Positions 15,168 through 16,153 of a stretch of 37,504 bases of DNA are shown here, one piece after another. Every line of letters begins with the position of its first letter. Positions within the stretch are counted from its first letter, which is position 1. Position numbers and translations under genes: made by a program. This stretch comes from a virus. Taxonomy: Duplodnaviria; Heunggongvirae; Uroviricota; Caudoviricetes. The notes beneath the pieces were generated by a model that worked only from the letters and a program-made list of their open reading frames with translations, searched no databases and was not told the origin of the DNA. Location of the stretch: IMG/VR virus record IMGVR_UViG_2660238580_000001, positions 1-37,504 of that record. One strand, given 5' to 3'.

Positions 15168-15644
15168 ATGCAGGTACTAAATTCCCAGCGTAAAGCTTTC
15201 CTCGATATGGTGGCATGGTCAGAAGGAACGGATAACGGGCGACAACCGACACGTAACCACGGTTATGATATTATTGTTGGTGGTGAACTATTCACTGATT
15301 ACTCCGATCACCCTCGCAAACTTGTCACGCTAAACCCCAAACTCAAATCAACAGCTGCAGGCCGTTATCAACTTCTTTCACGCTGGTGGGATGCTTACCG
15401 CAAGCAGCTTGGGCTGAAAGACTTCTCTCCAAAAAGCCAGGATGCTGTGGCATTGCAGCAGATTAAAGAGCGTGGCGCTTTACCGATGATTGATCGCGGC
15501 GATATACGTCAGGCTATCGATCGTTGCAGCAATATCTGGGCTTCACTGCCGGGCGCTGGTTACGGTCAATATGAACATAAAATCGGTGACCTGATTGCCC
15601 GATTCAAAGAGGCTGGCGGGGTGGTAAATGAAGTTGAGCTATAA
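15168..15644 (+). CDS. R: Endolysin, lambda R-like lytic transglycosylase
   Basis: 158 aa; near-identical over most of its length to lambda R as I recall it (NSQRKAFLDMVAWSEGTDNGRQ ... DRCSNIWASLPGAGYGQ). Confidence 0.92.
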   Translation: MQVLNSQRKAFLDMVAWSEGTDNGRQPTRNHGYDIIVGGELFTDYSDHPRKLVTLNPKLKSTAAGRYQLLSRWWDAYRKQLGLKDFSPKSQDAVALQQIKERGALPMIDRGDIRQAIDRCSNIWASLPGAGYGQYEHKIGDLIARFKEAGGVVNEVEL

Positions 15645-16062
15645 GCTGGTTATCGCAGCATTCTTCTCTACTGTCATCGGTTCTTTCATCTGGTCTGCTA
15701 ACCACTACTACAGCAAATATCAGCACGAAAAGAAACGTGCTGATGAGGCTGTACAAAATGCTGAATCCGCAACCGCTATTACCAATAATGTCCTGCAATC
15801 ACTGCAAATCGTCAATACAGTTCTGGAGGCTAACCAGCATGCAAAACAGCAGATCGCACTGGAGTCACAGAGAACCCAGGCTGATATCAAAGTGGCTGTT
15901 GCGGATGATGATTGTGCTTTACGCCTTGTGCCTGCTGCCGCTGCTGACCGGTTGCGGAAATACGCGGACAGTTTACGTAACAGTACCTCCAATTCCGCTT
16001 CCAGCTACTCTGACTTTGGAAACGCCAGTACCGCACATACCCGATACTCTGACCTATGGTGA
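15628..16062 (+). CDS. Inner-membrane spanin (Rz-like)
   Basis: 144 aa, N-terminal TM helix then coiled-coil-like region; start overlaps the endolysin 3' end as in lambda Rz. Confidence 0.7.
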   Translation: MKLSYKLVIAAFFSTVIGSFIWSANHYYSKYQHEKKRADEAVQNAESATAITNNVLQSLQIVNTVLEANQHAKQQIALESQRTQADIKVAVADDDCALRLVPAAAADRLRKYADSLRNSTSNSASSYSDFGNASTAHTRYSDLW

Positions 16063-16153
16063 CAGTCTGGAGTTGAATGTGAGTCTGTTGTCAGCGTTGG
16101 AACAGTGTAATCTTGATAAAGCAACAATAAAAAATATCGACGCTAACAAATAA
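15905..16153 (+). CDS. Outer-membrane lipoprotein spanin (Rz1-like), overlapped architecture
   Basis: +1-frame ORF within Rz; internal start MMIVLYALCLLPLLTGC gives a lipobox (LTGC) and Pro-rich mature region; extends 91 nt past the Rz stop. Confidence 0.65.
   Translation: MMIVLYALCLLPLLTGCGNTRTVYVTVPPIPLPATLTLETPVPHIPDTLTYGDSLELNVSLLSALEQCNLDKATIKNIDANK

Follow-up and report, generated by a model that had tools for sequence, protein, structure and literature searches.

We find that positions 15628-16153 of the 37,504-nucleotide (nt) viral sequence IMGVR_UViG_2660238580_000001 (the window) very probably encode a two-component spanin, the final unit in the lysis cassette of a temperate phage that resembles SfV and SfIV and is integrated at a tRNA-Thr gene. 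The inner-membrane spanin (i-spanin, the Rz equivalent) is a plus-strand gene of 144 amino acids (aa), running from an ATG at 15628 to a TGA at 16060-16062. The outer-membrane spanin (o-spanin, the Rz1/LysC equivalent) is read in the +1 frame relative to it and ends beyond its stop codon. An earlier reading of the sequence alone, made without database searches, had proposed that the pair is overlapped rather than embedded, and the frames, the stop codons and the 91-nt extension were all recomputed as claimed. The identity of the genes, their membrane-targeting signals, their architecture and its conservation, and their position in the cassette were all directly observed.

The +1 frame is open from 15737 to a TAA at 16151-16153. 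Among its codons are ATGs at 15905 and 15908, and its translation runs MMIVLYALCLLPLLTGCGNTR... Its last nucleotide lies at 16153, against 16062 for the i-spanin. The resulting 91-nt segment (16063-16153, plus strand) holds the conserved C-terminal part of the o-spanin, including its second cysteine within (E/G)QCNxDK. In overlapped pairs, the o-spanin starts within the i-spanin gene in another frame and ends beyond it (Summer 2007; Kongari 2018; definition from PMC6139136). All candidate starts, from 15839 to 15908, fall within 15628-16062, and the two genes overlap by 158 nt counted from 15905 or by 224 nt counted from 15839. The window pair belongs to the overlapped class, as do those of SfIV and SfV, and the o-spanin is not wholly contained within the i-spanin gene in the window, as it would be in an embedded pair. 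In lambda, which served as a control, Rz1 is embedded, its end falling 59 nt short of the Rz stop, so that the contrast drawn with lambda in the sequence-only reading also stands. A different start could not restore embedding, because embedding depends on the two stop codons and not on the start. The overlapped class and the 91-nt extension are unaffected by which o-spanin start is chosen.

Homology searches identify both frames as spanin genes. The o-frame product, translated from 15905, matches the Pfam profile PF23793, 'Rz1-like lysis system protein LysC', with 61.3 bits (expectation value, E = 8.2e-17). The cut-off of this profile is 27 bits, and the match spans profile positions 2-67 of 69. 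The same product matches PHROG 456, 'Rz-like spanin' (E = 7.2e-25), and the i-spanin matches PHROG 214, also 'Rz-like spanin' (E = 3.7e-45). Neither spanin passes any NCBIfam model, and the sub-threshold matches in that collection are meaningless. The i-spanin begins with lysines at positions 2 and 6, followed by the hydrophobic segment LVIAAFFSTVIGSFI, with a Kyte-Doolittle peak mean of 2.33 over residues 7-21; the remainder of the protein is hydrophilic. It has features of a type II inner-membrane protein (N-in, C-out) with a periplasmic domain, a topology predicted by the positive-inside rule. Its only cysteine, C96, lies in the motif C-x3-VPAAAADRLR.

The overlapped layout is shared by the relatives of this pair. 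A tblastn search with the o-spanin returned 95 phage records, including Mu, D108, APSE and ENT47670. From such searches we assembled 15 loci, comprising the window, SfIV, SfV, SfII, Mu, APSE-1, one Klebsiella and one Salmonella phage, together with phages of Yersinia, Erwinia, Enterobacter, Pantoea, Providencia, Morganella and Proteus. At each locus, a script located the o-frame, the lipobox cysteine, the overlapping i-frame and both stop codons. At all 15, the o-frame is +1 to the i-frame and ends beyond the i-spanin stop by 91-202 nt; the extension is shortest in the window. Consequently, the overlapped layout is a trait of the family and not a peculiarity of the window or an artefact of truncation. 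A lipobox cysteine was detected in 14 of the 15 loci, and a cysteine followed by N-x-D-[KR] occurs in 14 of the 15 family members. A first lipobox regular expression had missed SfII (LNGC), ENT47670 (LTNC), Ehr_49 and P2; the tblastn-anchored script recovered all of these except ENT47670. The o-frame remains open, and the lipobox cysteine and QCNxDK are retained, down to 33-44% aa identity in Mu and in Proteus and Morganella phages.

These relatives agree with a published grouping in which SfIV, SfV, Mu, D108, ENT47670, APSE-1 and APSE-2 form a single 'Mu' family of o-spanins, and the supplementary tables of that study list SfIV and SfV as 'ovl' (PMC6139136). The overlapped arrangement is not unusual, and its presence in SfIV and SfV is already known. 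Of 528 two-component spanins, 228 are overlapped, and the other two architectures account for 182 and 118, making the overlapped class the commonest (Kongari et al. 2018, PMC6139136).

The o-frame carries a putative lipoprotein signal. The LTGC lipobox noted by the sequence-only reading lies in the second frame at 15944-15955, with its cysteine codon at 15953-15955, and is preceded by the hydrophobic run MMIVLYALCLLPL (...LLPLLTGC). Together, the lipobox and the hydrophobic signal-peptide core (MMIVLYALCLLPLLTGC) occupy 15905-15955 on the plus strand. The lipobox agrees with the expression [LVI][ASTVI][GAS]C and with the PROSITE pattern PS51257. The PS51257 pattern fails on P2 LysC, and rule-based lipobox tests are therefore not fully sensitive. 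Counted from the cysteine at 15953, the mature o-spanin is 66 aa long and contains one further cysteine, in EQCNLDK. The residue at +2 to the lipidated cysteine is glycine, not aspartate, nor does aspartate occupy +2 in any of the 14 relatives whose lipobox was detected. Since glycine rather than aspartate follows the cysteine, the o-spanin is predicted to be sorted to the outer membrane. Both proteins have a periplasmic cysteine, namely C96 of the i-spanin and the EQCNLDK cysteine of the o-spanin, the latter kept across the family. Cysteines suited to intermolecular disulfides occur in 507 of 528 spanin pairs (Kongari et al. 2018, PMC6139136).

On balance, ATG 15839 appears to be the likeliest start of the o-spanin. 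Candidate starts were scored by pairing the 20 nt upstream of each with the 3' end of 16S rRNA, for which the window mean free energy (dG) is -2.8. ATG 15839 follows a GGAGG at 9-nt spacing and scores -9.3, within the top 1% of the window, whereas TTG 15899 (-2.3), ATG 15905 (-2.3) and ATG 15908 (-3.3) are at background level. The same scoring selects the accepted start of lambda Rz1 (dG -8.3). Given its strong Shine-Dalgarno site, the o-spanin probably starts 66 nt upstream of 15905, and the start 'near 15905' favoured by the sequence-only reading is probably not the initiation codon. Read from ATG 15839, the gene occupies 15839-16153 (plus strand, +1 frame) and encodes a 104-aa precursor, in which the cysteine would follow a signal peptide of 38 residues whose n-region (MQNSRSHWSHREPRLISKWLLR) is unusually long and strongly basic. 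An ATG stands exactly 38 codons before the lipobox cysteine at nine of the 15 loci (the window, SfII, SfIV, SfV, Kp_RAH1, Sal_118970, APSE-1, Yen_29.18 and CobraSix). It has been retained although the overlapping i-frame residues vary (H-A, D-A, N-D), usually together with a Shine-Dalgarno site, and in APSE-1 it is the sole in-frame start codon.

Somewhat less probable, though a serious contender, is a start at TTG 15899, ATG 15905 or ATG 15908, in which case the signal peptide would have 16-19 residues and ATG 15839 would be a by-product of i-spanin coding. In favour of such a short start, lipoproteins seldom have signal peptides as long as 38 residues. From TTG 15899 alone is every PS51257 rule satisfied, with the cysteine at position 19 and an arginine within the first seven residues, and the 84-aa RefSeq version of the protein (WP_435371024.1) begins at this codon. 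The SfIV o-spanin is given as 93 aa in one supplementary table of Kongari et al., in agreement with a start equivalent to TTG 15899, while another of their tables places its start at 38759, a discrepancy that could not be reconciled (PMC6139136). The short starts are opposed by their background Shine-Dalgarno scores and by the persistence of the ATG at -38 codons in eight relatives with differing i-frame residues, APSE-1 among them. Two of the candidate starts also have points against them. From ATG 15839, the PS51257 cysteine-position rule fails, the cysteine being residue 39 and beyond the permitted range of 15-35. From ATG 15905, the rule for lysine or arginine fails, as the n-region holds neither, and the Shine-Dalgarno site is weak.

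It seems rather improbable that o-spanins of this clade use ATG 15839 in addition to the internal starts at 15899, 15905 and 15908. Such an arrangement may loosely resemble the dual-start S107/S105 holin motif, the data for it being the conserved upstream ATG and its Shine-Dalgarno site only. If it were true, two o-spanin precursors could differ in the speed of their export or lipidation, thereby tuning the last step of lysis.

Versions of the o-frame product with 104, 84 and 53 aa are present in public databases, and its gene is named 'lysC: Rz1-like lysis system protein LysC' in RefSeq. The 'lysC' that RefSeq/PGAP annotates in near-identical Escherichia coli prophages is 53 aa long and begins at an ATT codon, corresponding to 15992-16153 of the window. 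This version lacks a targeting signal, because the ATT comes after the codons for the signal peptide and the lipobox cysteine, and its Shine-Dalgarno score of +0.6 amounts to no site. The exact 53-aa version occurs on 75 contigs, and its cluster representative, a Salmonella version, on 293. Gene callers often miss o-spanin genes or misplace their starts (PMC6139136). The value of the present analysis lies partly in annotation: the pair should be named i-spanin and o-spanin, rather than 'DUF2570 protein' and a truncated 'LysC', and the o-spanin annotation should take in the signal peptide. Otherwise its importance is small, as the layout has been catalogued for SfIV, SfV, SfII and Mu, and the exact proteins are in RefSeq.

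The class of the pair faces a further challenge, namely that it was once embedded and that the overlap arose through a premature stop or a frameshift in the i-spanin, now a decaying pseudogene of a cryptic prophage. We regard this as very unlikely. Among relatives, the i-spanin does differ in length (130 or 144 aa), which shows that its stop codon is mobile. Yet the i-spanin stop precedes the o-spanin stop by 91-202 nt at every one of the 15 loci, and in none of them does the i-frame read through to the o-spanin stop. Rather than being truncated, the window i-spanin has the greatest length in its close group, and the identical 144-aa protein is present on 343 public contigs. Kongari et al. also observed that no family combines embedded members with other architectures (PMC6139136). 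Truncation of the i-spanin as the source of the overlap was rejected on the stop-codon analysis of the 15 loci. Alternative frames can, as a general point, remain open by chance, but the notion that the +1 frame is such a frame, with outer-membrane disruption carried out by something else or absent, has a negligible probability and is refuted by the Pfam LysC and PHROG 456 profile matches and by the persistence of the frame, its lipobox cysteine and QCNxDK at 33-44% identity.

How an overlapped two-component spanin of this kind would act can be outlined by analogy. The o-spanin would be made as a prolipoprotein, lipidated on the LTGC cysteine and directed to the outer membrane. There it may bind the i-spanin of the inner membrane, the periplasmic C-terminal parts of the two proteins joining to span the periplasm. 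Each spanin is probably a disulfide-linked homodimer, through C96 in the i-spanin and the QCN cysteine in the o-spanin. During lysis, the holin would free the endolysin, the murein would be degraded, and the spanin complex would then fuse the inner and outer membranes to complete the process. The binding, dimer and fusion steps are modelled on lambda Rz/Rz1 (summarised in PMC6139136).

Several points weigh against this picture. The mechanism is carried over from lambda proteins that are about 24-31% identical over partial alignments. No experimentally characterised member of this spanin family was found in the literature covered. The lipoprotein call for the o-spanin rests on pattern rules and homology. 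The i-spanin scores 19.9 bits (E = 7.8e-4) against the Pfam family PF10828, DUF2570, which is under the gathering cut-off of 26.6 bits. Identical proteins are nevertheless named 'DUF2570 domain-containing protein' in RefSeq, despite the sub-threshold Pfam score.

The position of the pair accords with its proposed role. Reading and listing of the open reading frames (ORFs) over 14400-16800, including the +1-frame ORF, gave four consecutive plus-strand genes, with the spanins directly downstream of a holin and an endolysin. The first gene of the cassette (14838-15164, plus strand) encodes a 108-aa class I holin of the lambda S family, which matches PF05106 (5.7e-25), TIGR01594 holin_lambda (121 bits, cut-off 55) and PHROG 126 (1.1e-36). 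This holin shares only 25% identity with lambda S but 99% with its SfIV counterpart. Next comes a 158-aa endolysin of the lambda R type (15168-15644, plus strand), assigned by its match to PHROG 90, 'endolysin' (E = 1e-62), and by its identity to lambda R. Copies identical in sequence are named 'glycoside hydrolase family 24 protein' in RefSeq. The end of the endolysin gene and the start of the i-spanin gene share 17 nt.

The sequence-only reading had also inferred modular exchange within the lysis cassette, and this is upheld by the distribution of lambda-like DNA. Across its full 158 aa, the endolysin shares 88.6% identity with lambda R, so that the description of it as near-identical to lambda was an overstatement. 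The spanins, by comparison, are 24% (Rz) and 31% (Rz1) identical to their lambda counterparts, both over partial alignments. At the DNA level, lambda matches the window only over 15186-15619, inside the endolysin gene, at 84.7% identity. DNA of lambdoid phages such as HK633, HK106 and mEp234 likewise matches the endolysin only, in some cases with the first ~90 nt of the i-spanin. As the lambda-like DNA is limited to the endolysin gene, mosaicism at roughly gene-sized boundaries is real, and the locus provides a small example of such exchange at gene boundaries inside a lysis cassette. Identity to the Sf phages follows a different course, standing at 90-98% from the holin through the endolysin to nt 270 of the i-spanin gene, dropping to 67-73% over 16000-16099, and being lost past the o-spanin stop.

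The closest known systems are those of SfIV, SfV and SfII, which have the same order of holin, endolysin, i-spanin and +1-frame o-spanin, and whose records annotate Rz/Rz1 or i-/o-spanin. Their cassette DNA is 88-92% identical to that of the window, and at the protein level the holin is 95-99%, the endolysin 96-98% and the i-spanin (Rz) 81-88% identical, while blastp and tblastn give 60-75% for the o-spanin. They share the lipobox region and the ATG 38 codons 5' of the cysteine. They differ from the window in the lengths of both spanins: the i-spanin is 144 aa in the window and 130 aa in the Sf phages, whereas the mature o-spanin has 66 residues in the window and 74-75 in the Sf phages. The extension past the i-spanin stop is shorter in the window (91 nt, against 157-160 nt) because its i-spanin is longer and its mature o-spanin is shorter.

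The difference in i-spanin length can be followed in the DNA. Across 16018-16062 of the window, the stop of the 130-aa Sf-phage i-spanin has been lost, ...GAC CGC TGA having become ...GAC TTT GGA. The window i-spanin reads 14 codons further, to TGG TGA, giving 144 aa. The same change from CGC TGA to TTT GGA converts an alanine of the o-frame to leucine (...SLTAETP... to ...TLTLETP...), so that the locus also shows a dual-coding change that moves the stop of one gene while altering a residue of the other. Both i-spanin variants fall in one protein cluster at 90% identity.

More distant systems share some of these features. In Mu, gp23 (i-spanin) and Mu_55 (o-spanin) are likewise overlapped in the +1 frame, and the curated record gives the lipobox LTGC, as in the window. 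The Mu o-spanin shares the C-terminal motif GQCNxDK with the window family, and the Mu i-spanin shares C-x3-VPAxAADRLR, which overlies the o-spanin signal peptide. Mu differs in that its o-spanin is only ~43% identical and extends 202 nt past the i-spanin stop, and in its lysis genes, which are a SAR endolysin and a releasin instead of a lambda-type holin and a lambda-R-type endolysin. LysB/LysC of P2, the prototype of the overlapped class, have the same architecture, with lysC starting within lysB and ending 145 nt beyond it, and the window o-spanin matches the Pfam family named after LysC. Similarity to P2 is nonetheless marginal, at 27% (E = 0.008) between the o-spanin and LysC and not significant (E = 1.4) between the i-spanin and LysB, and the P2 cassette differs in including lysA and another holin. 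Lambda Rz/Rz1, the prototype of the embedded class, act in the same role and likewise come after S and R, with Rz1 in the +1 frame, and they too combine a type II i-spanin with a lipoprotein o-spanin. Lambda Rz1 is unlike the window o-spanin in lying wholly inside Rz, and it is a proline-rich protein of 60 aa with a 19-residue signal peptide.

A search of 12000-17500 with Rfam gave zero matches at gathering thresholds. Scanning of the cassette for promoters and terminators returned an expected terminator-like hairpin 5' of the holin and otherwise sites at chance level. This hairpin, AAACCCGCCGTCGAGCGGGTTT followed by a T-rich tail, lies at 14664-14685 on the plus strand, ~150 nt 5' of the holin, and the SfV record annotates a putative rho-independent terminator at the equivalent relative position. 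It is consistent with a lambdoid late-operon terminator passed by Q-modified polymerase. The Q antiterminator gene (PF06530, 1.2e-44) is at 11970-12320. Between it and the holin, two genes lie on the reverse strand (12345-14547). One encodes a 344-aa member of the 37-kDa nucleoid-associated protein family (PF04245, 1.5e-68); the other, of 395 aa, has no Pfam match, and neither gene has a PADLOC match. SfIV and SfII have 'hypothetical' genes at the equivalent position.

Downstream of the o-spanin, a 162-aa ORF (16216-16704, plus strand) precedes an HNH endonuclease gene. With a hydrophobic segment at its N terminus and a GGAGG Shine-Dalgarno site, this ORF matches PHROG 6169, of unknown function (6e-65), and has no significant Pfam match and no PADLOC match. 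The PADLOC defence-system scan, which covered both spanins and three neighbouring ORFs, gave no match. This ORF looks like an inserted moron, since in SfV the HNH-like orf53 (MPPRTPKAC...) directly follows Rz1. The HNH endonuclease gene (PF01844, 3e-16) lies immediately upstream of that of a P27-family small terminase subunit (PF05119, 2.4e-21), the two occupying 16712-17721, and this pairing is a common arrangement in cos-type phages.

The window as a whole is an SfV/SfIV/SfII-like prophage at tRNA-Thr. At its left junction are an ORF of the aldehyde dehydrogenase family, possibly proA (1-1254), and a tRNA-Thr(CGT) gene (1369-1444), which adjoins a tyrosine integrase gene on the minus strand (1459-2622). 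The Sf serotype-converting phages integrate at the proA-thrW site, which is probably the one at this junction. In a megablast search with 1-25000, induced E. coli phages, SfV, SfIV and SfII matched 42-67% of the query at 95-97% identity. Of 5426 complete E. coli genomes, 754 have a match to the region 15600-16230, and in five of these the identity is 99.8%.

At the other end of the window, 34978-37504 is probably an invertible tail-fibre segment, resembling the Mu G-segment/Gin host-range switch. Inverted repeats of 24 nt (34978-35001 and 36872-36895), 88% complementary and with the core AAACCTTGGTTT, enclose a tail-fibre assembly gene on the minus strand (35674-36156; PF02413), and the first repeat arm lies inside an ORF at 34698-35354. 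A serine invertase/resolvase gene (36953-37504; PF00239, 8e-51) follows and reaches the last base of the window.

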